A DNA stretch of 64,000 nt, from the NCBI GenBank assembly GCA_050273025.1, contig CP158635.1, forward strand, positions 11,656,001 to 11,720,000, written 5' to 3'. Made by a program: the position numbers and the translations under genes. Origin of the DNA: Cenococcum geophilum. Lineage: Eukaryota. This document shows, piece by piece, positions 20,775 to 63,547 of the stretch. Positions within the stretch are counted from its first letter, which is position 1. Each line of letters begins with the position of its first letter. The notes beneath the pieces are model-generated. The model saw only the letters and a list, made by a program, of their open reading frames with translations, was not told where the DNA came from and did not search any database.

Positions 20775-21710
20775 TAATTGTTATAGTGGTGGTTAAAATG
20801 TTATAGGGGGTAGTAAAAAGTTTTCGCATAGGATGGTAAGATCTCGAAAACCACTACTAACGGTACTCCCTTTATAGTAGATAACTACTATATTCTTTTA
20901 TTTAACCCTATATAACCCTTATAGATATAATATAAAATCTAATATCCTTTAACCCCTAATTAAAAGTATTAATAACCTTATATTAATAAATAAGCAAATA
21001 TATATAAATAGATAAGCAAATATATATAAATAAATAACTAAATATATATAACTAAATAAGCAAATATACGGCCCCTTTTTAACTCCTAGGGCGATCGCCT
21101 ACGGAGTATATAGTTATTTACCATTAACTACTAAATACCTAGTAGCCTGGATTGCGACCTACGGTTTTCCCTATCTCCTTTTATCAGAGTTATAACCCTT
21201 AAAAAGGGCCTAGCTAGGGCCTAGGCATAAAGATACCTAAAGTACATAATATATCCCACTATTAGTACTACAGTAGCTAGAATAGATAAATCCCCCTTAT
21301 ACTTTTAATGGCTTAGGGGGGGAAGGCAAGGCATATATAGTAATAGTTAACAAGAGATAGTATATAAGGGACGGTTAAGATATAGGAGAAATAATAAGTA
21401 TACAGCAATTAATTGGCAAGGCCTAGCTGGGATATAGTAAACCCCAGCTTAAAATAAGCTAGAAAAGGAAGTAGTGGTTCCTAAAGAGTTTAAAACATCT
21501 AAGTAGGAGGACATGTATAGGCCTATAGGGCCGCTACTATGTATAAACATAGTAAATTGGGTTTTTTTTTAATCTAACTAAAGTAGCTTATAGAGTTTTT
21601 CCTCCCCTAACTACAGGGGTTTTCTTCCTATAAATATATAAGTTTTCCCCCCTATAATATGGTAGTCTATATAGGCCAGTGGGATCTATATTAGACGTTA
21701 ATCAAAGAAT
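20775..21710 (+). mobile_element. SINE-like retroposon, RIP-degraded copy lacking the 5' ribozyme
   Basis: Reverse-complement homologue of 48452-49330 (e.g. gatggtaagatctcgaaaaccactact; 3' ttagacgttaa). No clear TSD found. Confidence 0.8.
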
Positions 21711-24411: not shown

Positions 24412-25255
24412 TTAAGGTACGAATTTTCTAATTTTTGGTAAGGTTTAAGGTAAACGGGTTACCTATATAAATAGGCTACCTATAAACTATATTATCTTCT
24501 ATCTATATAATATTATAATATATTAATTTAAGAGATTAAGGATTTTAAAAAAATTTATTTTTAATACTATTGGTAAAGGGGGGGGAGTAGGCGTATAGGG
24601 GACGGAGCTAGCGGTCTTCTCCCCATAGGGTGCCTATAAGGTTACTAAGGTTTTAGGGGTATTTAGCGGGTCTAGGGGCATAGACCGCCTAAAATCTCGT
24701 TACTTAGGTGACAGAGCCCCCATAACTTTAGCGATCTTATAGGGGTTAGCCACTAGTCCCAAAAAGGAACCAATATTGGCAATATTATATTGCCGATATA
24801 TTTCCGATAGCCGATATTTTATCGGTTCGTATTGGTTCGTATCGGTGCGTGCGTATAGGTCGGCCAGACCACGCTAAAAGGTCGGCCCAATAGGCGAAAC
24901 CTCCGCCCGCCACACCAAACCCCACCCTTCCCCTCCCAAACTGACCCTACCATCCACCCTATCTTTTCTTATATATCTATCTTAAATCTATTATAAAAAT
25001 ATTTTTTATATAATAATTATTACCTTAAAGAGCTATATAAGCTATTTATAGCTTATTTTATAGTAATTTTAATAGTTTAAGCTATTTATAAAGCCTATTT
25101 AAACTAAAATAAAATCCTATAAAGGTAAATAATAAGTTTTTTCTAATATATTTAAAATATGTTTCTAATACGTTTAGAATATATTTATAACTAGTTATAA
25201 ACCTATTCTAGCTATATATAATTAAAATATATTAAGAATTATTATTAAATATAAT

Positions 25256-28200
25256 AATAATAATTTATTACTTAACGTCCGATTTAGATCCCTATTAGGC
25301 CCACGCGGACTACTCCTTATGTATATATGGGGAGAAAACTCTATTTAAGAAAACCCCGTAATCCATCTCCCCGCCTTTTAAGACTTGCCTATAAGGCGCC
25401 TACGAGGCGCCTGCGAGTTACCTATAGTGCTCCTACTACTTTACTTTTTAACCTTCTTAGGAACTACTGCTGCCGTAATAAGCCTATAGACGCGTTAGTA
25501 TCGCAAACTTTACTCTACTACTATAGAGTCATTAGGGGGCGCCCGTTGCTCGCCCCCCTACTCTTTATTACCATTTCCCTTATAACCCGGAACTGGTTTA
25601 GTATATTTTAGCTAATAAGCCACTAGGTAACCGCCTTAAGGCCTTTTTATATTAAGAGTAGTATATTATAGTTCTTTATGCCAGCTACTAAAAGTATTAC
25701 TTTTTGGTTAGTGCGTAAGGGGTATAACAGTATTATATGTTTTAGTGTCTGTCTTAGCCAGCCACATTTATATCTTAGGCTACCTACTAGGACACCCACC
25801 CGGTAGAGCCAGTCTTTTAGTCCTATTATTCCTATTCTTAAGAGTATCGCCATTATATTTTCTACCTTTATTAGGCTTTCTTAGAGCCCTAAAGTGTTTA
25901 CCCCCTATAGCGTTAACCATGCTACAGCTTAGGTTCCTCTTATTTTAGTTAGCCTCTGTACCTTTAACTCCTATACACCTCTTTAGCGTTAGTCTAACCA
26001 GTATTATATTACGGTAGATAGTTTCCTAGCGTTCTTTTATGCTCTGCTTTAGCTCCTTTCTCTTTCTTACTGTTATCTTTACTGGCCTCTTACGCGTCTT
26101 CCTTTTTCCTCTATATAGGCCTAGGCCCTAAAGCAGTACTATTCTTCTTCTGCTTTCTTTACCTGTTTCTCTAATATGTCTTTCCTACTTTAGGGTTATT
26201 AGTTTGTTCTCCTATAAGGCGCCCTAAGGTCCCTCTATAGTTTATTTAGGCGTGTCTTAATATACTTTATAATATTAGAGTTACGTTTATTTTAGGCCCT
26301 TTATATTGCAGCGGCTTTAATATATAGTTATAGGGGGGGAATATTAGCTTCCTTCTTAAGCAGTGCTGTGGCCGTTTACTTATATCCGCCTATTATACTT
26401 TAGAGGTAGGCTGTTTGGACCTTTTGGAGTGGTTTAAGGAGCGACTTAGGGGGGCCTTTCTTAGATTCTCCAATGGCCCAAATACTGGACCTATATGTCA
26501 TGGTTGGCCGGACAACTACTATATATAGTAGACGTGACCTCTAAAAGCATGGGCCCTATGTAGAATTAACAATCCTAGATAATATAATATACTATACTTA
26601 GCCCTTATAGGCCGCTTACGCCGCATATACGCTCTATTAAAGCTTACTGTCTACCTATACTCCTAATACCCTTAGGCCCTAAACTAGTTAACCCCTAAAG
26701 CCTTAGATGCCGATTATATGCTAGAGATCTATAGATTAGTTACGTTTTCTTATAAAATAGATTAGCTGGTATTTCTCTGGTAAGAATTAGACTTTATATC
26801 GTCTTACCTATTCTATATAGGTGTTATAAGCTTTCTCTAGCATTCTACAATTCTCTATAGCTGATAGCCCGTATATAATTAGGTTTGTGTCGTTAACGAA
26901 GCCTATCCCCTAGGTCGCCCCTTCCTTAAAGGAGTTAAGCAGGTTGCTTATAAAGAAAAGGAAGAGTATAAGCGAGAGGGGTAATCCTTATAGTATTCCT
27001 ATTACAACTGCGATAGGGGGGCTCTGGTATCCGTTAAAGACTAGTAATGTTTCTTTCTAACCTATAAACCCTTAGATAAATTATACAATCTATTCTAAAA
27101 AGCCTTTTACCCTAAGGATATATAGGAGACGCTCATAGGGTACGTTATTGTAGGCGCCACTAATATCTAGGCTAAGCATTAATACTACAAAGTCCCTTCA
27201 TATCGCCTATGTAGATTTAATGGTGGCAGCGAGTAGCGTAAGTGCTAATAGTGTTAAGCGGTTCTTTCTTGCCCCCATTTAGCTCTGTAGTAGTAGGGCG
27301 TGTTCCTTAGCCGTGTCTACTATATAGTCCGCTATTACCTTTTCTAAGATCTTGCTAAGGGTGTTTTCTAAGGCAATAGGGCGGTAGCTTCCTGGGATTG
27401 AGTAATCTGCTTTACCTTCTTTTCGTAGGACAATTATCGTCATAGATCTTCTAAGTCGTGGGTAGTAGCCTATAGTAAAGTATGCTCTAGCTACATCTAT
27501 AAGCTAAGGTACTATAAGTGGTCCATAGGTCTTTAAGGCCTTATTTAGAATCCTATCTAAACCTAATACTATATTATTTAAAAGGCGGCTAATAGTTCTA
27601 GCTATTTCCTCTATTATTATATCACTGTTAACCCGTAGGTAAGTCACCGGTGCTTTACCCGTAATATTACTAAGGTCTACTAAAGCCGGTTAAAGGAAGA
27701 ACCTTTCTATAAAGATCTTTGCCTTCTTATCGTTATTATTAGTGGCCTGTAATTCCCCTGCTCTTCGTAGGGGTAGTAGGTATAGGTCTTCTACTAGTCG
27801 CCCTGCCTTTTTCTTTGCCTATTTTGCTATAGCCCACAGGCCCTTATTATAGGGAAGGCTTAGGTTAAAAGTATGCTTATTTATAAATTATCTCCAGTTG
27901 TTCCTTACTTTTTTTTTTAGGGTATTCTTTAACTAGTTTCTTATGTCTTTATATTGTCTCTTATCTTTAGGATTGTGGCTGCTTAAGTATTTCCTTCTTA
28001 CTCGTTGTTAGCTAGCTATAAAAACCGCGCATTATATGGACCAAGCGTATTACGTATAGGGGCCCAGTCTTAAGACCGGGCAGTGCTCTTCTAGCCCATT
28101 TTTAATTGCTGCCTAGATCCTTTCTAGTCTTCGGTTAATTTCCTTAGGGGTGGCTAATAAGCCTTACTTATTTAGTATCGGGTGGATTTCTTCTAGGTCT

Positions 28201-30801
28201 TAGAGTTATTATTTAACTATATTAAGGAAACTGTCTGCCTTAAGCATCCTTATTACGTATCTTTTGCTATTTAGTTATGCCTTAATGTCTAAATCTAGCT
28301 ATATCTGGATGGGGATATGGTCTAAGGTAAATGCCTATTCTTCTTTAGGGTTATACCTTTTAAGTCTCTAGTATAGGCCTTCATCTATAAATATAAGGTT
28401 AATTATACTTCTAGCAGATCCTCGTTGCCATATAATTGCTTTAGGGGGGGTAGCTAGCTTAAGGCCCCAGGTGTCTATAGCTTTTAGTAGGCACTCTACC
28501 TATTATTTAGCAGCGACGTAGATACCCCCCTACCGCGGGTAGTAGGGGTTTATGTCTCCTAATAGGATAAACTCTATACCTTTAGTTTTAAGTAAGCTTA
28601 TTACTAATATAATATTCTCTGTTTATAGGACCCCTTTAACCCTAGGGTTATATACATTAATAATTTATACCGGTCCTCTATATATCTAGATTATTATAAC
28701 TACAATATCTAGATTAACTGCCTACTATAACCATAAGGATAGGCTAATAGTTTTACTGATTATAAAGCATACGCGTGTGGCTGCTTTTGGTTCGTATAGG
28801 AGCTGGAATCCTTAGGGGCAGTATGTCGATTATATATAGGTATTGTAGTACGGCTCTTATATAGTAAGGATATAGTATTTCTTTGGGTCTAGACTGTCTA
28901 GTAGGGGCCTTACAAGACGGTGGTTTGTATTACTATAGTTATACTATATAATAGATAGGTAGCGGACCCCCAGTAAGGGTCCTTCGCCTCTCTCTTATTC
29001 CTTACTTCTTCTATTTCCACTTTCTCTAAAATATTTAAAACTTCTATCTCTTGTGTCTACACCCTGGTTACTACTTATTTTATATAGAGCTTTCCATTTC
29101 TGTGTCTTATATTCCTACTAGCGCTTCTATATCTAAATCTATTATTATCTCTAGTTCTTCCCCTGTTCTTACTAGTTAGCTATATACCCTTTAAGAGTCG
29201 GCTATAAATGTTATATTTACCGCATTAAGTCTAATTCTTAATTGTCCTGGTTTTAAGCTTACTATAGCTATTTATAAGGGTCTTCCTACAGGGCGTCCTC
29301 TCCCTTATGTCCTCTATAACCCTTATATCCCTATACGGTCTAGTGATATCGCGCGGCGTCGCTTCTAGCCTATTAAGGCTTAGGATAGCTAGCCTAGCCC
29401 CCTAGTATTAAAGATAGGAAACGCTAGAAGGGCACCTGCGCCCCCCTAGCTTATCGCCTGTTATTTCTATTCGTATAACCTAGTATGTAGTTATTCCCGT
29501 AGCTGTTAAGCCCTAACCTTCCGTCTCCTATATTTAATGCAGTCTTCTCTCTCTCACACCTTATGTATGCTTCGGTGGCAGTTTACGCATTTTGTTTGGT
29601 CTTAATTTAAGTAATATCTTATATCGTGGGGGCCTGTACAGTGGCCGTAGCATACCTATACTGCGCATGTAGATTAGGTGTGCCCCTATTATGCGCAGCG
29701 ATAGCATCGTTTTAGGCGAAGTCTGTAGTTATAGAGCCTTACGTCGTATATAAGGCCATTTATAATAATACCTTTTTAAATAAGGAGTTTTTGCATTCCT
29801 AGTATATATGTGCTAACGATAAGGGAGCCATGCGTTTGACCAGCGTTTCCCTAGCGAGTCTCTAGCGACCCTTATATTCTTTTATTATTCTCATTATATA
29901 CTTGGTTTGTATTTTCCTATTAAAGCCATTAGATTTAGGTAATCTTAAGTCCTAGTATAAGGCGTTCCGTTTGTTTTACTATCTTATATATAGTTGCTAT
30001 ATTATCCGCCTAGCGTCCCTTTTCTACCCTAAGGCTTAGGGGAACCGCTAGGACTTCGACTAGGTAATCTTTACGGAGCACTTTTATACTAATACGTTCT
30101 TCTAGCCTATCCCCTGCCCTAACAGCTCGTTCCTTTACCTATTAGTCCCTTAAGGTAACTCTAATATCTCCGCTCCTAAGGTATTGGACTATAACAGCAT
30201 TATAGACCTCTTTGCGAATTTTTGTAAGGACTTTTATTTCTAATTGTCCCCTAAGCCCCTCTACTTTTTCTATATTTGGTTATATTATAATTATATACCC
30301 AAATATTGTCTTTAGGGGGGTAGGTTCCCTATGCTATAGACGCGCAGCTACGGCAGCCCAGGTACGGTTCGCCGGTAAGGAGGGGTTTTATTTATTTTTA
30401 ATTTTACTTAGCCGTTAAAGGATTTGATTAAGGGTTTACTAAAGGGGCGCCTAAGGTTCGCTAAACTGGCGGAGCCATTCTGCTAGCTATATTAGTTTAT
30501 TATAGCTAACGGTTACTCCCCCGTAATTACGGATACTAGACGCGTCTAATAGGCTTTATACTTTATTAGATGCCTTCTTAATAGAGGTCTTTCCGCTTTA
30601 TGGTGTAGTATTCGCCTATTCTTATTATAGAGGGCCATTGCTAGGCGTGGTTCTGGTGGACGCACACGAGTGCAAACCACCGTCGTTTGACGTGTACCTC
30701 CCCTACGATGCATGCATCTTAGGGGGATTCTCTAGGTGTTTTTCAGGGTTTTTTTTTAGTTGGTTTTAGTCTTTTTAGGCCAGGTGCAGCAAGAGCTCCT
30801 T
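25256..30801 (-). mobile_element. Full-length Tad-like LINE (ORF1 from ATG 30638; ORF2 endonuclease-RT-zinc knuckle), RIP-degraded
   Basis: 17-bp TSD ttattattaaatataat (25239-25255, 30802-30818). ORF1 has CCHC knuckles (~29550-29700). Endonuclease QYN...IQEP (~28950-28850), RT GFVDD (~26890), C-terminal CGW-RQT-KH (~25760). Confidence 0.92.
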
Positions 30802-30889
30802 TTATTATTAAATATAATTTTAGTAGTTTAAGCTACTTTATTATAACTAAAAACTATATATCTTTATATATATAAATAAGGCTTAAATA

Positions 30890-40722: not shown

Positions 40723-43442
40723 ATGGCTGTTCGGCGACCCTCTGGGCGCAAAGACTTCGAGATTGGGATAATTTGCGCATTACCACCAGAATACGACGCT
40801 GTTTCCCTTATCTTTGACGAATTTTGGGATGAAGATGGCGACCCGTACGGGAAAGCGACTGGAGACCACAATTACTACACGACTGGTCGCATTGGCAAGT
40901 ATAACGTCGTCCTGGCTCTGCTTTCTCACATAGGTAAAACCAACGCTACCAGCGCAGCCCATAGCTTACGGCTAAGCTATAGTGGGCTGTGGCTTGTTCT
41001 CCTTGTTGGAATCTGCGGCAGGGTGCCTCGCGTTGGCGCTAAGGAAATCTTGCTAGGCAATGTGGTTATTAGCAAGACTATCGTCCAATATGACTTTAGC
41101 AGGCGATATCCTAATGGGTTTATACGGAAAGATACCATTAAGGATAACCTTAGCAAGCCAAATAAGGAGGTCCGGAACTTATTAGTTATGTTTAAGACGG
41201 ACCGTAGCATAGAACTGCTTTATCGAAGAACTGCGAGCTTCCTTAAAGAGCTCTAGGCAATAGCCGCGAAACGGAGGGGGGGTTGAGGTAAATACAACTA
41301 CCCTGGGACGGCTGAGGATAAGCTATTTGAATCGAATTATACACACGGTAGGGAGTACCGTAGAACACCCAGCCATGTCTGCGACGAGTCCTTTAACCTA
41401 TCTTGCGAGGAGGTGGGATGCGATAAAAGGCGCTTGGTGCCAAGGGAACGACTTAAGATAAAACAACAGCTAGAGCCTAATAATATCAACGAAGCATAAA
41501 AGCCTGCCATCTATGTCGGGCCTATTGCGTTAGGTGATATAGTTATAAAGTCTAGGGAAGACCGAGATACAATTGCAAGGAAAGAAGGTGTTATTGCATT
41601 CGAGATGGAGGCAGTAGGCGTCTGGGAAGAGCTGCCTTGTTGCATTATTATTAAAGGAGTATGCGACTATGCTGACAGTCATAAAAATAAGAAATGGTAG
41701 AATTTTGCTGCTGCTACCGCGTCTTCCGTTACAAAGGTTCTTCTAGAACGTCTTATCCAAGAAGACAAACCGTTGGCGCCGGCTATGCGTGACGGTGGGT
41801 TCTAAATTTCTTTGAACCTACTAGTAAGATTACAAAATCTAAACTAACACTGCTAGTGCCTTAGAACGAGCTGATGCGTCCAATATGCTCCAAAACAGTA
41901 TCCTAGGTTATAATATTGCGAGATTATAACAAGGGAACAATATTATAGGACTGCCAGAACCAAATTAGTTAACTATTCTTATAAGCCAACTAGCTTAAGG
42001 CCTGCCTCCCCAAATCAAGTATCAAGACCCTGTGATGGTAATTGATGCGCGGAATCGACCTATACCCTTTTTTTTAGACACAATAGGTTCTGTAGAGGTC
42101 CGCAAAGACGCTTTATTGCAGCCTTGACGTAGTATAGGGACGCTAACGTATATCTAGCTCTTCACCAAAATTCTAAAGGAGAAGTTTAAAGACCTTGGGT
42201 TAGGAAAGATAAAGCGAGGGGAATAGTACCTTAAGGACCACTATTCTGGGCAAATCCTTAATCTTACAAAACCTTGGAAATCGCTTATAAGGGTAGGTCT
42301 CCTAGGCTAAAGGAGGTGTATGCTAGTATACTAACTCCAGTAGCCTGGCCAACGCCTTAATATGGCTATGATATTCCGCCGACGGAATATATTATCTATA
42401 TAATGTCCAGTATACCATTCCAAGAATATTGGTGATCCTAAAATATAAGTAACATAGTAGGTATTCCTAACTGTTATTATATTGGAACTGCTTAACTTAG
42501 ATATAGTATAGCCATGTATGCGCTTTAACGTATCGCCGTATTAAGGAAATCCAAGAGATACCTGTCCTAGAGGAAGATTCTTAGCCTCAGCCAAGGACAG
42601 CAGTCCCTCAAGTAACTCCTAAGGGAAAGCATAAAGTTCTAGCGCCCTTACTAAGACCTAGACCACTAAAACCACAGAATAACGACGACGATATTAGCCG
42701 TTATAGCCGTGTGTAGGTTATTGACACTAGTTTCCAGATCCAAAAGGCTGGGAAAGGTAAGATGGTAGCGGGTCTAGCTACGCTAAGCATGCAGGATTTG
42801 GGCGATCCCGAACGCCTAGCAGCATATCTTGCAACAGTTTGCGGTCTCCCGGAGGAGGATTGCCTAGTCGCTCTAAGGGAGTGCGAGGCGCAGCTCCTAG
42901 CTATAAGGGCCGAATTATCATCGCCTATCAAAATGGGTGACCCAATTAGCTCTGCATTTGGTATTGTCCGTGTCCTCAAAAGCGCCTACGACCTCTACAA
43001 TGCCTGCACACAGGCCGGAGAAGATTTTCGTACCCTTTCGAAGCATGTGCAAGGCATGATGATTGTTCTCGAAGGAGTCAATTCTGATCTTGTTAAAAAT
43101 CCTCGGTCCGTCGTCAATCGCGGAGATTACATAGCAAGGAACAAATCAACGCGTCTGAAAAATTTTATCGTGAGCTGCGAGGCTAGCCTAACGAAAGTAG
43201 AGGCGTTACTAGCAAAATATCACAGTTTCCAAAGGATCCGTCCTAGCGACTGGGATAGCTTCAAATGGGGGGCTAGTGGAAAAGCCGAAATCGCAAATAT
43301 TGAAGCCGATCTAATCTTATCGACTCTACTGCTGAACGCATTTATGGCGAAAGAGGGACTTAACGTACTCGACCGAGTTGAGCAAGCGATTTAGTCATTG
43401 ATAGGACGGTTTGACCGGCTAGGATACGGACAGTAACACTTG
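40723..43442 (+). pseudogene. RIP-damaged fusion gene: PNP_UDP nucleoside phosphorylase domain + ubiquitin-like domain + HeLo-like (fungal STAND N-terminal) domain; 3' end cut by an LTR
   Basis: PNP motifs IGIICALPPE, LLVGICG, AFEME, KGVCDYADSHKNKKW (40723-41790). After an intron: QDPVMVIDARNRPIPFFL...PGQRLNMAMIF...CP-C (~42000-42550). In frame with MGDPISSAFGIV...AYDLYNAC...WDSFKW (42933-43394). In-frame stops at Gln/Trp/Arg positions (41254, 41284, 41497, 41698, 43392). Confidence 0.85.
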
Positions 43443-48286: not shown

Positions 48287-48451
48287 TAACCTTATAATTT
48301 TTAACGTTTCTTATACTCTAATAAACTTATTATATACCTTCTTTTGCTTATTAAGGGAGTGTCTAGTTAACTAGCAATTTGGCTTCTTATAAACGTAGCA
48401 CTTTTTTTAGCAATTATTTTAGAATAAACCTCTATAAGGACCTCCATAATT

Positions 48452-49445
48452 ATTATTCATTTATTGCTTAACGTCTAATACGGATCCTATGCGGCCCACG
48501 CAGACTACTCCGTACACAGGGGAAACTTGTAAATTTATAGGAAGAAAAACCCCTGATATGTTAGGGGAGGAAAAACCCTATAAGCCACCTCAGTAGGATA
48601 AAAAACCCCGATTTGCCATGTCCGTCCATAGCAGCGGCCCTGCGGGCCTATAGCTACGTCCTATCCTCCTTAGATGTTTGAACTCCTTAGGAACCACTGC
48701 TTCCTTCCTTAGCTTATCCAAGCTAGGGTTTACTACGCCCTAGCTAGGCCTTGCCAATTAATTGCTGTATACTTTATGTTCCAAATCTTAACCATCCCCT
48801 ATATACTATCTCCTGTAGACCATTACCATATACGCCTTGCCTCCCCCCCCTAGAGCCATCAAAGGCGTAAAGGGGATTCATCCATTAACCACTGTAATAC
48901 CAAGCGCGCGGGATATTGTATATTTTGGGTATCTTTTATGCCTAGGCCCCAGCTAGGCCCTTTCTAAGGGTCACCACTCCGTCAAAAGAAGACAGGGAAA
49001 ACCGTGGGTCGCAATCCAGGCTGCTAAATACTCGGTAGATGATGGCGAGTAACCACATGCTCCGCGGGCGATCGCCCTAGGGGTTAGGAGGGGCCGTATA
49101 TTTGCTCGTTCGTTCGTTCGCGTCCGTTCGTTCGTTAATATAAGGTCGTCGATGCTTTCAATTGGGGGTCAGGGGGATGTTATTGAATGCCGTGCATCCA
49201 TGTTAGATCGTACAGGTGCCCTAGGTAGGAGAACAGCGTAGTAGCCGTTTTGTAGAGGGCCAACAGTAGTGGTTTTCGAGATCTCACCATCTGAAAATTT
49301 TTCACCACCGCCCACAACGCACAACCACCACCAGGTCCTGCCCGCACGCTGTGCGACGTCTCTGCGTTGGCTCTGAGTCTGAACTTCGAAGACTTAGGTT
49401 CGTAGCCGTCACCACGTACAGGTGCAGAGTCCGTTTTCGACGGCC
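48452..49445 (-). mobile_element. 994-bp non-coding SINE-like retroposon with 5' ribozyme and LINE-like 3' end
   Basis: 15-bp TSD aggacctccataatt (48437-48451, 49446-49460); the empty site is single-copy in the sister Copia (~35853-35870); A-rich tail; no long ORF. Confidence 0.92.
49360..49445 (-). ncRNA. HDV-like self-cleaving ribozyme (predicted)
   Basis: RNA GGCCGUC GAAAACGGA CUCUGC ACC UGUACGU GGU GACGGCU AC GAAC CUAAGUC UUCGAAGUUCA GACUCAG AG CCAAC GCAGAG. 7-bp P1 with G1.U wobble, 6-bp P2, 3-bp P3, 7-nt L3, 2-bp P1.1, P4 hairpin and J4/2 with candidate catalytic C, all in HDV order. Confidence 0.85.
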
Positions 49446-50378
49446 AGGACCTCCATAATTGCTTTATAGTTAACGTTAATTATACCCTTTACTATATTCC
49501 CTACCACGGCTACTATATATTCGGTTAGTCTAGTTATAATTATATTAGTTAGAAACGCTTAGTTAGGTAAAGCTTTTAGTATAAAACTGTTAAGATTTTT
49601 ATATTTATATTATAGTACCTATAGCGGAGCGTAGCTTAGTATATACTCCTTTAAATATATTTATAGGTTTATATAGCACTAAGTTATACTTAGGAACGCT
49701 ATAGTAGGCTAAGATAATCTAGTCCCTTAGACTGTTCTTATTTTAGTAAGTTTTAGTAAGGCTATATTGGATTTTTTGGAGTTTATTAAAGAGTAGTTAA
49801 AGGCACTCTAAATAAGTCTTTATTGGGTTAAAAGTAATAACTTTCTAAAATATAGTCTCCCGCCATTCGGATATATAAAGTTAGCAATTCTTATTAGTTT
49901 TAAAGTAGGCTTTAGTAAGCTAAAGCATTATATTAAAGCTATAGTTTTTACCCGTAATATAGTTATAATAGAATATTACTGCCTATCCCTTTAATATAAT
50001 AGAGAAAGCGTAGTGGTACTAGTGGTATTAAATTTTAACCTTATTATAACAGTTATAGAAAACCTATAGTTTTACTCCGAGTATATTATATAATTTTCCT
50101 TTAAACTTCTTCTCTTTATCTAAATATACCCTTATTAGATTTGTAACTTTTTATAATAAAAGCTTACCAGTTAGCTAAAGTAGAGAAGCTAAAGGTGGCG
50201 GAGGTAGAGGAAGAGTACCTTTAGGTAGGAGAGCACCTTTAGGTGGGAGAGCACCTCTAGGTAGAAGAGTAGCGTTTTAGGGTTTTTATTTTAAATTAAA
50301 GTTACCTTCTAAAGAATATAGGTTGGTTTTAGGTTTTTATAGTTAACGTATAATCTTAGCTTCTGTTTATACTGGTTC

Positions 50379-60692: not shown

Positions 60693-61513
60693 ATGATAGG
60701 CTATGGTTCCTCTTGTACTTAAGTAAGGTGCTATTTAGAAGCGGAGTAGACCTGAACTCGTCCGTGCAAAGTTTCCTCTCGAAATAGCCAGGGCTTAGGC
60801 AAAATAAAAGCTACCTCACGGTATAAACAATTGGCCGCATATCGTGGATAAGATCAACGCTAACTCTGAGAGATGGGTTGCTCCGAAGAATGACAGCCAC
60901 TCCAGCTGAAGAGCATGCAAAAGTCTCATGTGATGTGGCTGTGCTAGGTTTGCCCAACTGTGGATCCAGTTCTGGCTGTCCCTAAATAACGTATGCACGG
61001 TCCCATCTTGTGCACGGCACCAAAATATATTAAAATAAAACGAGGTGGTGGCAAAATGCATGCAGAATCCTGAGGGCCTGTCTCATTAGGTATCTATATC
61101 TAGCTATCTAAGAATACAGAATAAACCTATTCCGCTGCCGCCTATCACCATCTTGCTTTATTTCTCCTTGACATGAGGAGTCTGCTGTGGAAGAAACTGG
61201 TCTCGCATAAATAGAAACCTATCGCCATCCTGCTTCATTTCTTCTCGATATAAGAAGTCTGCTGTAGAGGAAGGTCCCGCATAAACATAGTGGCTACACC
61301 GCCGACTGCAAGCTATATATTATTAGAAGGTAGGATATCCCTTCCAACGGTGGTGTCCTACGAGAGTTGGACCGTGCGCGAATACCAGAATCAAAAGTAC
61401 GCATATGGTTGATCCTATTGATTCTATTGGGTAACTCTTATCGATAACCGTAGGAATTCCACGTTCTCCAACTGCCACCCATTCAGAGCTTCAAGCGACG
61501 AAAACCAGTCACG

Positions 61514-63547
61514 ATGATGGACGACTTCGATATTGACATTGATCCAGCCCTGGTGGAGCGGATGCCATGGCTCGAGACCCCGTTAGATACTAGTAAACCC
61601 CACATCCGGATTCTTAAGTTGCACAAGGGAGCCGACGATAGTCCGATTACCTGCAGGTTGCAGATTGTGTCCTTAGATGATAACCCAGAGTACGAAACCC
61701 TTTCTTATGTTTGGGGCGATCCGGAGAAAACCAAGTCCATCATTATCGGTGGTGAGATCTTCAATGCGACAGAGAATTTGGTCGATTTCTTGCATTGCTT
61801 GAGGCAGCGAATCGCCGATCGGTTCCTATGGGTTGATGCTATTTGCATCGATCAGTCGAACGTTGAAGAGAAAAATCGTCAACTTGGATTGATGGCCAGA
61901 ATCTACCGTCAAGCAAAGGAGGCCCATATCTGGTTCGGCCACTTTACGCAGTCATGGTCTAATGAAATTATATGCGACTCGGACAAGTACACCCGAGCGT
62001 CTGAAATGACATCAGATCAATGGAATCAGGCAGAACAAATCTGCTGTGACGAACTGAGGCATTTCCTGAGAGCGGGTGGCAAAGCTCCACAACAATATGA
62101 GCTGCCCGATTCAAAGAAGCAATCTTGTGACGAACTCCTATCCCGGACATTGGATGTGCTGGACGGAGCCGCAGGGGGGAAGCATCTACATGAGTTCCCA
62201 CTTTTCCTCCTCGCTGACGATGTCAGCAAAGGCGGTCGATTTGCGATGAATAGGCACTGGCTTACGATTCTTGACTGCATTCGGTGGTTGCTTTCACGTC
62301 AGTGGTGGACTCGAGTATGGACTCTGCAAGAAGCCGTCTTGCCCCAGGTCGATTCCTTCATACACGCTTATCCATACTCGTTCCGCATATCAAGGCTGCT
62401 GAATGGCATTCAATCTATGATGGACCACCGTCTTGAGTGCTGCAAGGACCTAGGAAGACTCTTTCTTGGAGAATATCAGAGCTTTCCCTTCTACCAGTAC
62501 ACTCGAGCTTACGCCCTGCATGGCCATCGCAAGAGATTTACAGAATCGGAATCGCAATGGCTGTCTCTTGAAGAAGCCATTAGTTCAGCTCAGGGACGGA
62601 AAGCTACTGATCTACGAGATCATTTCTTCGGGATACTAGGGTTGCTACCTCCAGAGTGGCAAGATGGTTGGTTCTACAATCAGGGTTACTCATGCACCAC
62701 CGCTGAAATATTTGGTCAATGCGCCAAATTACTTTATACCAATTACGACAGCCTTGGACCACTCAGCGACGCAATCGGTGTTAGAAGAAGTATGGTTAGC
62801 GACTTGCCCTCATGGGCTATTGATCTCAGCAACCAGCTTCCTGACGGTGAAGACGACAACAATCGCTGGGAGCTCTACGATGCATCCCGTCAGTCACGCT
62901 TTGAAGGAGTCGGGTTCATGCATGAATTGACGGGCCTAGATCTATCGATTAAGATGATCCCGATAGGAACAGTGCATGCCTGTGCTAGGCGGGTGTCTCA
63001 AGACGAACTGAATTCAAATCGCACATCTAATGTGGTGCTCAGCCACGTATCTGAATGGCAGCGGCTATACAAAGACTGCGCGGATCCTCCTGACAACGAC
63101 AAGTTTTGGAGGGCTGCCTTCATGGATAGAGACATCTGGAGATACTGGCTGCACGAAAGGAAACCGCTGCCTTGGCAGAGGCTGGCCGATATAAAGCAAT
63201 GGTGGAGAAGCTGGAGCGAAACGGGAGACAATCGAGATCTCACCGTAGACAAGCAGGCTGGTGACGGTAGCCATGGAGACTATCACTATAGAGCGCTTAA
63301 GCTCAATGCAAAGAACCATCGGTTCTTTTGTACAGCCAAAGGTGAGCCGGGACTCGGACCCCATTTTATGCAACCTTCAGACGAGGTATGCGTGCTTGCG
63401 GGCTGTCGGGCACCTGCTGTTCTACGACGTGTAATGAGGGATGGAAAAGATGCTTTCTTGTTTGTTGGTCTTTGCTTCGTCGACGGGTGGATGTACGGAG
63501 AGGCTACACTTGGTCGTCCAAAATGGCAGACTGTAACATTGCATTGA
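61514..63547 (+). CDS. HET-domain protein, HET-6-like, 677 aa, intact single exon
   Basis: IRILKL, YETLSYVWG, LWVDAICIDQ-N-EK-Q-MARIY, WWTRVWTLQE, ATDLRD, LPSWAID and C-terminal GLGP...DEVCVL-G...VLR...GLCFVDGWMYGE. Confidence 0.95.
   Translation: MMDDFDIDIDPALVERMPWLETPLDTSKPHIRILKLHKGADDSPITCRLQIVSLDDNPEYETLSYVWGDPEKTKSIIIGGEIFNATENLVDFLHCLRQRIADRFLWVDAICIDQSNVEEKNRQLGLMARIYRQAKEAHIWFGHFTQSWSNEIICDSDKYTRASEMTSDQWNQAEQICCDELRHFLRAGGKAPQQYELPDSKKQSCDELLSRTLDVLDGAAGGKHLHEFPLFLLADDVSKGGRFAMNRHWLTILDCIRWLLSRQWWTRVWTLQEAVLPQVDSFIHAYPYSFRISRLLNGIQSMMDHRLECCKDLGRLFLGEYQSFPFYQYTRAYALHGHRKRFTESESQWLSLEEAISSAQGRKATDLRDHFFGILGLLPPEWQDGWFYNQGYSCTTAEIFGQCAKLLYTNYDSLGPLSDAIGVRRSMVSDLPSWAIDLSNQLPDGEDDNNRWELYDASRQSRFEGVGFMHELTGLDLSIKMIPIGTVHACARRVSQDELNSNRTSNVVLSHVSEWQRLYKDCADPPDNDKFWRAAFMDRDIWRYWLHERKPLPWQRLADIKQWWRSWSETGDNRDLTVDKQAGDGSHGDYHYRALKLNAKNHRFFCTAKGEPGLGPHFMQPSDEVCVLAGCRAPAVLRRVMRDGKDAFLFVGLCFVDGWMYGEATLGRPKWQTVTLH

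Follow-up and report, generated by a model that had tools for sequence, protein, structure and literature searches.

A non-coding ascomycete retroposon family whose RNA probably begins with an HDV-like self-cleaving ribozyme

Self-cleaving ribozymes related to that of hepatitis delta virus (HDV) are found at the 5′ ends of several retroelements that lack long terminal repeats (non-LTR elements). HDV-like ribozymes are described as processing R2 elements from 28S co-transcripts, and the R2 SIDEs (short internally deleted elements) as non-autonomous derivatives that use these ribozymes (PMC6765202). Ribozyme heads of the same kind extend to NARTc and the ingi clade (PMC3383444, PMC4035085). The class is built as a nested double pseudoknot of the helices P1, P1.1, P2, P3, and P4, with a core formed by the loop L3 and the joining segment J4/2; the helices make two coaxial stacks, and cleavage takes place at the first nucleotide of P1 (PMC4908430). 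Here we analyze a 64,000-nt stretch of DNA from Cenococcum geophilum (contig CP158635.1 of assembly GCA_050273025.1, positions 11,656,001 to 11,720,000; hereafter the window), whose minus strand carries a retroposon that appears to begin with a ribozyme of this class. A first-pass annotation, made from the letters alone, had described this element as being headed by an HDV-like ribozyme with its cleavage site at the element boundary, and had taken as established that such ribozymes process the 5′ ends of R2 and other non-LTR elements, a premise borne out by the literature (PMC6765202, PMC3414825, PMC3383444).

Ribozymes of the HDV class are likewise known from fungi. Li and Breaker (2017; PMC5640933) report 230 variant representatives in 26 fungal species, two of which were shown to cleave, and refer to 11 canonical fungal examples credited to Webb et al. 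(2009); the gene associations are described as "widely variable". No specific biological role for fungal HDV ribozymes is proposed in the available text of that paper, in which a term search for the word "retrotransposon" gave 0 occurrences. A literature search combining HDV-like ribozymes with fungi or Ascomycota revealed no link to a fungal retroposon, and the family described below may already be among the sequences of PMC5640933 or among the 11 canonical hits.

We consider it likely that the element in the window represents a high-copy family of ~1-kb non-coding non-LTR retroposons of an ascomycete whose RNA begins with an HDV-like self-cleaving ribozyme. The observation that underlies the first-pass annotation is confirmed, and its interpretation, which is partly supported, is the best reading of the data, with the cleavage step inferred from the fold and the genomic boundaries. 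Judged by predicted architecture, the first 86 nt of the element belong to the HDV-like ribozyme class (Table 1). In the numbering used here, nucleotide n of the element lies at window position 49446−n, such that G1 is 49445. The helices P1, P2, P3, and P1.1 and the loop L3 can be drawn exactly where the first-pass annotation had placed them and with the sequences it gave, including the G1·U42 pair at the predicted cut site, and P1.1 would be formed by the L3 bases G27 and U28 with C44 and A43 (49402-49403). The P2 helix also appears in the minimum free energy (MFE) fold. A 9-nt J1/2 segment (GAAAACGGA in the window copy and GAAAUCGGA in other copies) separates P1 from P2 and provides the spacer without which an HDV-like ribozyme is inactive (PMC4908430). 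The P4 helix had been drawn with a bulged adenosine, and although the helix itself is found at nt 49-55/67-73, it is better described as seven positions containing one A51·C71 mismatch. Similarly, the sequence GCCAAC proposed for J4/2 is present, with one extra adenosine (nt 74) preceding it. Within this segment, C76 is followed by N-A-A, as is the conserved J4/2 cytosine of the HDV class, and is the candidate catalytic cytidine. Nucleotides 3-6 (CCGU) can also pair with nt 12-15 (ACGG) of J1/2 (49431-49443, minus strand), forming a small hairpin in the MFE fold that competes with P1, and it is possible that this alternative pairing could act as a folding switch.

Table 1. Coordinates, strands, and supporting evidence for the retroposon, its predicted ribozyme, and related features of the window.
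Feature	Position	Strand	Basis
Whole non-autonomous retroposon copy, 994 bp	48452..49445	-	Perfect 15-bp TSDs, empty-site contigs, full-length metagenome relatives
Upstream TSD copy, 15 bp, AATTATGGAGGTCCT	49446..49460	-	Direct repeat reading
Downstream TSD copy, 15 bp, AATTATGGAGGTCCT	48437..48451	-	Direct repeat reading
HDV-like ribozyme fold, nt 1-86; predicted cleavage 5′ of G1 (49445)	49360..49445	-	Descriptor, RF02682 alignment, 21-sequence pairing
P1 5′ strand GGCCGUC, nt 1-7	49439..49445	-	Pairs with 49404-49410
P1 3′ strand GACGGCU, nt 36-42, U42 facing G1	49404..49410	-	Pairing alignment
P2 5′ strand CUCUGC, nt 17-22	49424..49429	-	Pairs with 49360-49365; 99.2% of cells paired
P2 3′ strand GCAGAG, nt 81-86	49360..49365	-	Pairing alignment, MFE fold
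P3 ACC/GGU (nt 23-25/33-35) closing 7-nt L3 UGUACGU	49411..49423	-	Sequence reading, pairing alignment
P4 hairpin, nt 49-73, CUAAGUC (49-55)/GACUCAG (67-73), one A51·C71 mismatch	49373..49397	-	Sequence reading
J4/2 AGCCAAC, candidate catalytic C76 at 49370	49366..49372	-	Conservation in 21-sequence alignment
Retroposon 3′ tail in common with LINE 25263-25319: terminal hairpin (48473-48505), GACGTTAA box, A/T-rich end	48459..48514	-	blastn
Degraded endonuclease/RT LINE, ~5.5 kb, candidate RT source	25256..30801	-	RVT_1, Exo_endo_phos_2, TSD
Second copy, 5′-truncated at element nt ~111-116, RIP-like decayed	20787..21705	+	Alignment, 79% identity
TSD, target-site duplication; LINE, long interspersed nuclear element; RT, reverse transcriptase; RIP, repeat-induced point mutation.

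The position of the predicted cut site acquires its meaning from the boundaries of the element. A 15-bp target-site duplication (TSD) had been reported to enclose the minus-strand element, and the repeat is indeed perfect. The stretch or part of it is found in sequence archives in 20 rows from 17 studies, with X1-X4 being one sample that may be the source of the window; we used runs X21 (stranded RNA, raw reads), X1 and X5 (DNA), and X13 (metatranscriptome contigs). Five DNA contigs of run X1 contain the empty-site form, in which the flank is matched from 49446 onward, and left of the junction they are identical at 14 of 19 bases to the window left of 48437, with all five differences being transitions. 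Because these contigs show the host repeat without interruption, both boundaries in the window are exact. The insertion target (48400-48436 and 49461-49500) is itself a repeat of which uninterrupted copies occur in run X1, and the high depth of the flanks in the DNA runs also indicates that the host sequence around the element is repeated.

Further copies were sought by scanning metagenome contigs with the 16-nt P3/L3 core, leaving the two P1.1 positions free and thus requiring 14 core bases to be intact, which returned at least 121 loci. At least 21 of the 121 matches listed are additional copies of the element, one data set contributing 13 of them, a second 6, and two others a single copy each, which shows that it belongs to a dispersed family. 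The alignment of each of these 21 with the window element begins at nt 1 or, as placed by blastn, no later than nt 8, and the sequences upstream of nt 1 are unrelated in every case. Nine whole copies align through nt 978-987, and L042, which ends at the edge of its locus, through nt 914, with 80-88% identity to the window element. Each of the 10 full-length metagenome copies (L003, L008, L009, L010, L013, L019, L036, L038, L041, and L074) has its own 12-15-bp (or near-perfect 14-16-bp) TSD directly abutting nt 1, such that, with the window copy, 11 of 11 junctions contain no extra base. The first-pass annotation had asked whether full-length copies extend 5′ of G1, and none of the 11 TSD-bounded copies does. 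At the opposite end, the copies terminate in GACGTTAA, a short A/T-rich stretch, and two to six units of TAC, TAT, or TTA, followed by the TSD. The TSDs mostly start with TA(T/A), which suggests an apurinic/apyrimidinic (AP)-type endonuclease nicking A/T-rich DNA.

A covariance model built from the family gives scores of 67.7-120.8 bits on the copies. The other 98 listed loci score at most 30.5 bits, the best of them being of bacterial HDV type, and the model identified no further member among these 98 loci and nothing extra in the flanks of the 21 copies. One of the copies, L076:308-481, is internally deleted, with ribozyme nt 1-66 followed directly by nt ~155-180 and these in turn by nt ~836-913, a rearrangement that would remove the 3′ strand of P4, J4/2, and the 3′ strand of P2. 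Other loci retrieved by the same core resemble the class without belonging to the family. L033:1084-1169 and L089:287-369, from soil metagenome, represent another HDV-like candidate with the same P3/L3 core and with its own P1, P2, and P4, for which there is no Rfam call at E≤1, and L069 and L112 are a further HDV-like pair, L069 scoring 24.8 bits to RF02682.

The alignment used to evaluate pairing contains 21 sequences, comprising the window copy and 20 loci, with L076 left out because of its internal deletion after nt 66. Across this alignment, 96.2% of 503 pair cells of the five-helix structure are paired, compared with 30-41% when the partners are slid by one to three columns. Pair 5-38 of P1 is G-C in 17 copies, C-G in 3, and G·U in 1, and one pair of P4 is G-C in 8 copies, A-U in 7, G·U in 2, and unpaired in 1, with exchange between GC and AU contributing seven cells. 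The position of the A51·C71 mismatch in the window copy is occupied by a G-C pair in seven other copies. The P4 helix is perfect in L041 (CUGAGUC/GACUCAG), and it reads CUGGGUC/GACCCAG in L105 and CUGG-UC/GAUC(C)AG in subfamily B; L006 and L095 have a shorter P4 loop, and in L019, L098, and L102 paired insertions add three base pairs to the stem (CUGCUG...CAGCAG). Cells changed on both sides number 10, compared with a shuffle mean of 3.8, a count reached by none of 500 shuffles.

Among the same sequences, the cut-site pair is G·U in 18 copies, A-U in 2, and something else in 1. In J4/2, no variation is seen at A78, A79, or C80, and conservation is at least 90% at both C76 and C77. The P3/L3 segment is invariant among copies because the search pattern itself specified it. 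A conservation profile was therefore computed from the 11 full-length copies, as substitutions per site relative to the majority base, with the 16 pattern-fixed positions omitted. The values are 0.048 for nt 1-21, 0.041 for nt 38-48, and 0.029 for nt 74-92, compared with 0.108 for P4 and 0.111 for nt 93-994; the core together with P4 differs from the body with a Fisher p of 4.7e-5. Conservation within the element is highest in the ribozyme core, and the HDV class is characterized by just such a conserved core accompanied by a free P4.

Transcripts of the element are present in the RNA runs. First mates of X21 fall overwhelmingly on the plus strand, which in most stranded libraries denotes minus-strand RNA, the sense strand of the element. 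Sense depth in X21 declines from 941 in 49399-49435 to 25.6 in 49436-49472 and to 0 in 49473-49500, with 244 fragments ending at 49436 beside a depth of 810, and over the same bins the depth of X13 declines from 185,714 to 1,369 and to 0. The element RNA is abundant and sense, with a sharp 5′ edge in nt 1-10. Reads were placed at 90% likeness on the window copy, which differs by 12-20% from other copies, and for this reason depth along the element mostly mirrors conservation. One A of A51/A52 in P4 (49395) is missing from 341 of 1042 RNA reads, and indel variants cluster just downstream of the ribozyme (49319-49342); these variants correspond to expressed subfamilies distinct from the window copy.

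To estimate how often such a fold arises by chance, we used a descriptor specifying a 7-bp P1 that starts with G, a 3-bp P3, a 7-nt L3, a 2-bp P1.1, a 6-bp P2, and C.AA in J4/2, with no condition on P4. It matches the real window once, at 49445..49360. In 200 first-order Markov windows of 64 kb, both strands included, there were 36 matches, corresponding to ~0.18 per window and ~1.4e-6 per position. A single match somewhere within 64 kb is unremarkable on this basis; a match that starts on the first base inside the TSD is not expected by chance, given the per-position figure. A stricter descriptor with four perfect outer P4 pairs yielded 16 and 8 matches in 200 simulated windows of two compositions and 0 in the window, where the A·C mismatch in P4 causes the copy to be missed. 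In the sensitive mode of Rfam, RF02682 (HDV-F-prausnitzii) is the only ribozyme model retrieved, and its full length, 1-74, aligns exactly to 49445..49360.

Several observations weigh against a ribozyme at this position. The RF02682 score of the window copy is 14.2 bits (E=2), compared with a gathering cut-off of 44, and by score the sequence is not a member; L041, L019, L009, and L074 have no Rfam HDV match at all at E≤1. The pseudoknot-free MFE is no better than that of shuffles (z=-0.48), a measure that is uninformative for this class. Covariation is thin, in that, counted by pair, only 2 of 25 have changed on both sides, and as many are seen in 170 of 500 shuffles, there being few informative changes because the family is young. 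The contrast with slid partners is partly built in, since the structure was derived from one aligned sequence, and the 21 copies were chosen for 14 intact core bases, with 19 of them coming from two metagenome data sets. Subfamily C (L019, L098, and L102) has a U3·C40 mismatch in P1. In addition, one P1.1 pair is broken without compensation by the presence of A27 in 5 of the 21 copies; this looks like post-insertion decay because other GC-to-AT changes are present in the same copies. The Rfam E value, the ~0.18 descriptor matches per simulated 64-kb window, and the MFE result would all be expected if the resemblance had arisen by chance in the GC-rich 5′ region of an ordinary retroposon. Such an origin is nevertheless very improbable in our estimation, given that a match expected at ~1.4e-6 per position begins on the first base of the element, that the fold is kept across three subfamilies with compensating changes, and that no other part of the element is as conserved as its core.

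Other objections concern what the fold does rather than whether it exists. The pile of RNA fragment ends lies at nt 10 rather than at nt 1, which does not imply a 5′-OH at G1. In random-primed libraries the outermost several nucleotides at the 5′ end of an RNA are usually missing, and the pile at nt 10 is therefore compatible with an RNA that ends at G1; the edge itself is equally what cleavage or initiation would produce. The first ~90 nt might function mainly as an internal promoter from which transcription initiates at nt 1, with the HDV-like fold being a relic or a second function, as in Pr77/L1TcRz. Strong conservation of nt 1-48 and 74-92 would be equally expected of a promoter, as would the sharp RNA edge near nt 1-10 and the abundant strand-specific expression, and a combined promoter and ribozyme has a precedent in L1Tc/NARTc (PMC3383444). 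A promoter leaves unexplained, however, why all five HDV helices are retained, why P4 exhibits compensating changes and paired insertions, why the core is identical to that of validated ribozymes, and why the TSD meets nt 1 with no intervening base at all 11 junctions; we regard this explanation as unlikely. More improbable still is that an active or structured fold serves mainly some other step, for example by binding the LINE protein, stabilizing the RNA, or acting in translation-like recruitment, with the 5′ end being set by other means. The R2 and L1Tc ribozymes have been proposed to act as elements resembling an internal ribosome entry site or as protein-binding elements (PMC6765202), but this element has no conserved open reading frame (ORF) to translate, and in 11 of 11 copies its boundary coincides with the first base of P1, as cleavage predicts.

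If the RNA does begin with a self-cleaving ribozyme, the life cycle of the element can be outlined as follows. A copy would be transcribed by RNA polymerase II, either from neighboring promoters or from an internal one. The first 86 nt would then fold as a nested double pseudoknot and cut the chain directly 5′ of G1, as the fold and the genomic boundaries suggest, thereby removing the upstream host sequence and retaining the whole ribozyme on the element RNA. Since the cut is upstream of the ribozyme, each full-length daughter copy would inherit an intact ribozyme starting from the same G. The 3′ hairpin and the GACGTTAA/A-T/(TAC)n tail might be recognized by the endonuclease and reverse transcriptase (RT) of a long interspersed nuclear element (LINE) with the same tail. 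The LINE protein would nick A/T-rich DNA and copy the RNA by target-primed reverse transcription, giving 12-17-bp TSDs and occasional 5′-truncated copies; genomic footprints of target-primed reverse transcription, in the form of TSDs and a 5′-truncated copy, are observed.

A candidate for this partner lies within the window itself. A degraded LINE is bounded by a 17-bp TSD, ATTATATTTAATAATAA, at 30802-30818 and 25239-25255, and, when read with X at stops, it contains an RVT_1 domain (E=3.8e-14) and an Exo_endo_phos_2 domain (E=5.5e-5) whose match falls short of the curated cut-off. It also has a C-terminal Cys/His-like motif and ends in GACGTTAA and a (TTA/TAT)n tail. The last ~57 nt of the retroposon match this LINE at 80.7% over 57 nt (blastn, E=5.6e-8), substantiating the LINE-like tail noted in the first-pass annotation. 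Both tails are predicted to form a common 3′-terminal hairpin (48473-48505 in the retroposon and 25277-25309 in the LINE, both on the minus strand), one stem pair of which is U-A in 12 of 12 retroposon tails and C-G in the LINE. This modeled hairpin is a candidate for the RT recognition site.

The 5′ end of the LINE shows no similarity to the ribozyme, with 57 of 300 shuffles scoring equally well in a strict comparison and 181 of 300 in a transition-tolerant one. Neither the family covariance model nor a transition-blind scan found a second ribozyme in the window. A covariance-model match at 42143-42239 (14 bits, E=0.11) was rejected for having no P3/L3 core, and the best other match of the transition-blind (R/Y) scan, which would reveal a second ribozyme decayed by repeat-induced point mutation (RIP), is 32/38 and within chance. 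Because this LINE copy has an unrelated 5′ end, the retroposon is not a simple internal deletion of it, one decayed copy having been examined. It is possible that the LINE copy is 5′-truncated by ~100 nt, or that another LINE family is the partner.

The body of the element bears out its description as non-coding, as no ORF is conserved among the 11 full-length copies, and ARAGORN and Rfam agree with the reported absence of a tRNA or 5S head: ARAGORN finds no tRNA, and Rfam finds no family at gathering in the whole 64-kb window. A short interspersed nuclear element (SINE) in the strict sense begins with a head of tRNA, 7SL, or 5S origin that contains an internal RNA polymerase III promoter, and no such head was detected in the retroposon by ARAGORN or Rfam; its length of 994 bp is also long for a SINE. 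Runs of T5-T6 occur in the sense strand upstream of the 3′ tail, so RNA polymerase III would presumably halt before the part needed by the LINE protein. The features expected of a LINE-mobilized non-LTR retroposon are all present, namely variable TSDs, a simple-repeat or A/T-rich 3′ end, 5′-truncated copies, and the lack of an RT gene.

The second, diverged copy that the first-pass annotation had placed at 20775-21710 is real, but it is 5′-truncated, spans ~20787-21705, and has no ribozyme, as its alignment starts only at element nt ~111-116. Its 176 mismatches include 69 G>A and 49 C>T changes, 118 together, compared with 18 in the opposite direction, and 33 of the 69 G>A changes are preceded by T. 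Directional GC-to-AT decay of this kind, seen both in 20787-21705 and in the LINE at 25256-30801, is typical of RIP, and AT-rich blocks alternate with blocks of 42-49% GC along the window. A gene for a HET (heterokaryon incompatibility) domain protein, with a 697-codon frame, lies at 61454-63547 on the plus strand, and its nearest clusters are ascomycete. The HET-domain gene and the RIP-like decay narrow the fungal host proposed in the first-pass annotation to an ascomycete.

With this family, the setting of non-LTR retroposon 5′ ends by ribozymes, so far described from animals and trypanosomatids, would extend to filamentous fungi, and canonical HDV-type ribozymes of fungal genomes would gain a biological role. 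It is conceivable, if doubtful, that the family represents a true composite SINE-like class, in which an HDV-like ribozyme that was not inherited from a LINE replaces the RNA polymerase III gene head, and in which an element with no promoter of its own spreads by excision from any host transcript. Were this the case, the fungal HDV ribozymes for which "widely variable gene associations" were reported may in many instances be the heads of such retroposons. An abundant, expressed natural family with three subfamilies provides material for tests of cleavage, 5′-OH ends, and LINE dependence, and for genome annotation it represents a ~1-kb repeat that tRNA-based SINE finders would overlook.

The closest described systems resemble the fungal family in different respects. 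The R2 SIDEs of Drosophila are likewise non-autonomous elements without an ORF that carry a 5′-terminal HDV-like ribozyme, with self-cleavage of the co-transcript setting the 5′ end and the protein of the autonomous element recognizing the 3′ end (PMC3414825, PMC6765202). Whereas R2 SIDEs are deletion derivatives with both R2 ends that insert site-specifically in 28S rDNA, the fungal copies are dispersed with variable TSDs, and the single LINE copy shares their 3′ tail and not their ribozyme; the presence of the same ribozyme on the autonomous partner, which characterizes the R2 SIDE and NARTc type, is not seen in the one TSD-bounded LINE copy of the window. L1Tc/NARTc and the ingi clade of trypanosomatids are also dispersed non-LTR elements with non-autonomous relatives, TSDs, and an HDV-like ribozyme in the first ~77 nt (PMC3185411, PMC3383444, PMC4035085). 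In those elements the 77 nt of L1TcRz/Pr77 are also a proven internal promoter, a role that is at most putative for the fungal segment, and are common to autonomous and non-autonomous elements, and the fungal ribozyme resides in a fungal host and is unrelated in sequence outside the class core. The SINE-like elements of schistosomes are short non-autonomous retroposons whose transcripts are trimmed by a self-cleaving ribozyme, but this ribozyme is of the hammerhead class, and the elements differ further in their RNA polymerase III-type transcription and tandem arrangement (PMC6765202).

With regard to the ribozyme itself, RF02682 (drz-Fpra type) has a near-identical core of P3, L3, and the start of P1 (CACCU-N-UACGUGGUGA), a GAAA-rich J1/2 after P1, and GC-N-AA in J4/2. 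In both RNAs, two bases that pair with L3 follow P1, and the core CACC-U-N-UACGU-GGUG is common to them. RF02682 is bacterial, however, its P1, P2, and P4 sequences differ, and where it has C-G in P1.1 the fungal RNA has G-C, a change of both bases. The same 16-nt core also retrieves the metagenome loci L070, L084, and L116, which are RF02682 members at 71-75 bits; the L109 match is identical to that of L070 under the family covariance model, and two of L070, L084, L109, and L116 are labeled human gut. The variants of Li and Breaker are likewise of the HDV class and occur in filamentous ascomycetes, in several copies per genome (PMC5640933). They are distinguished by a C-G cut site, an E-loop in place of some of P4, and one additional base separating P2 from P3, in contrast to the G·U cut site and plain P4 helix of the canonical type in the fungal family; C22 can be read as the extra P2/P3 base but is pairable with G81. 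HDV-like ribozymes that head non-LTR elements and their non-autonomous derivatives are thus known, as are HDV ribozymes in fungi (PMC6765202, PMC3414825, PMC3383444, PMC5640933), and what appears to be new is that such a family exists in a fungus and that it seems independent of the LINE at its 5′ end.

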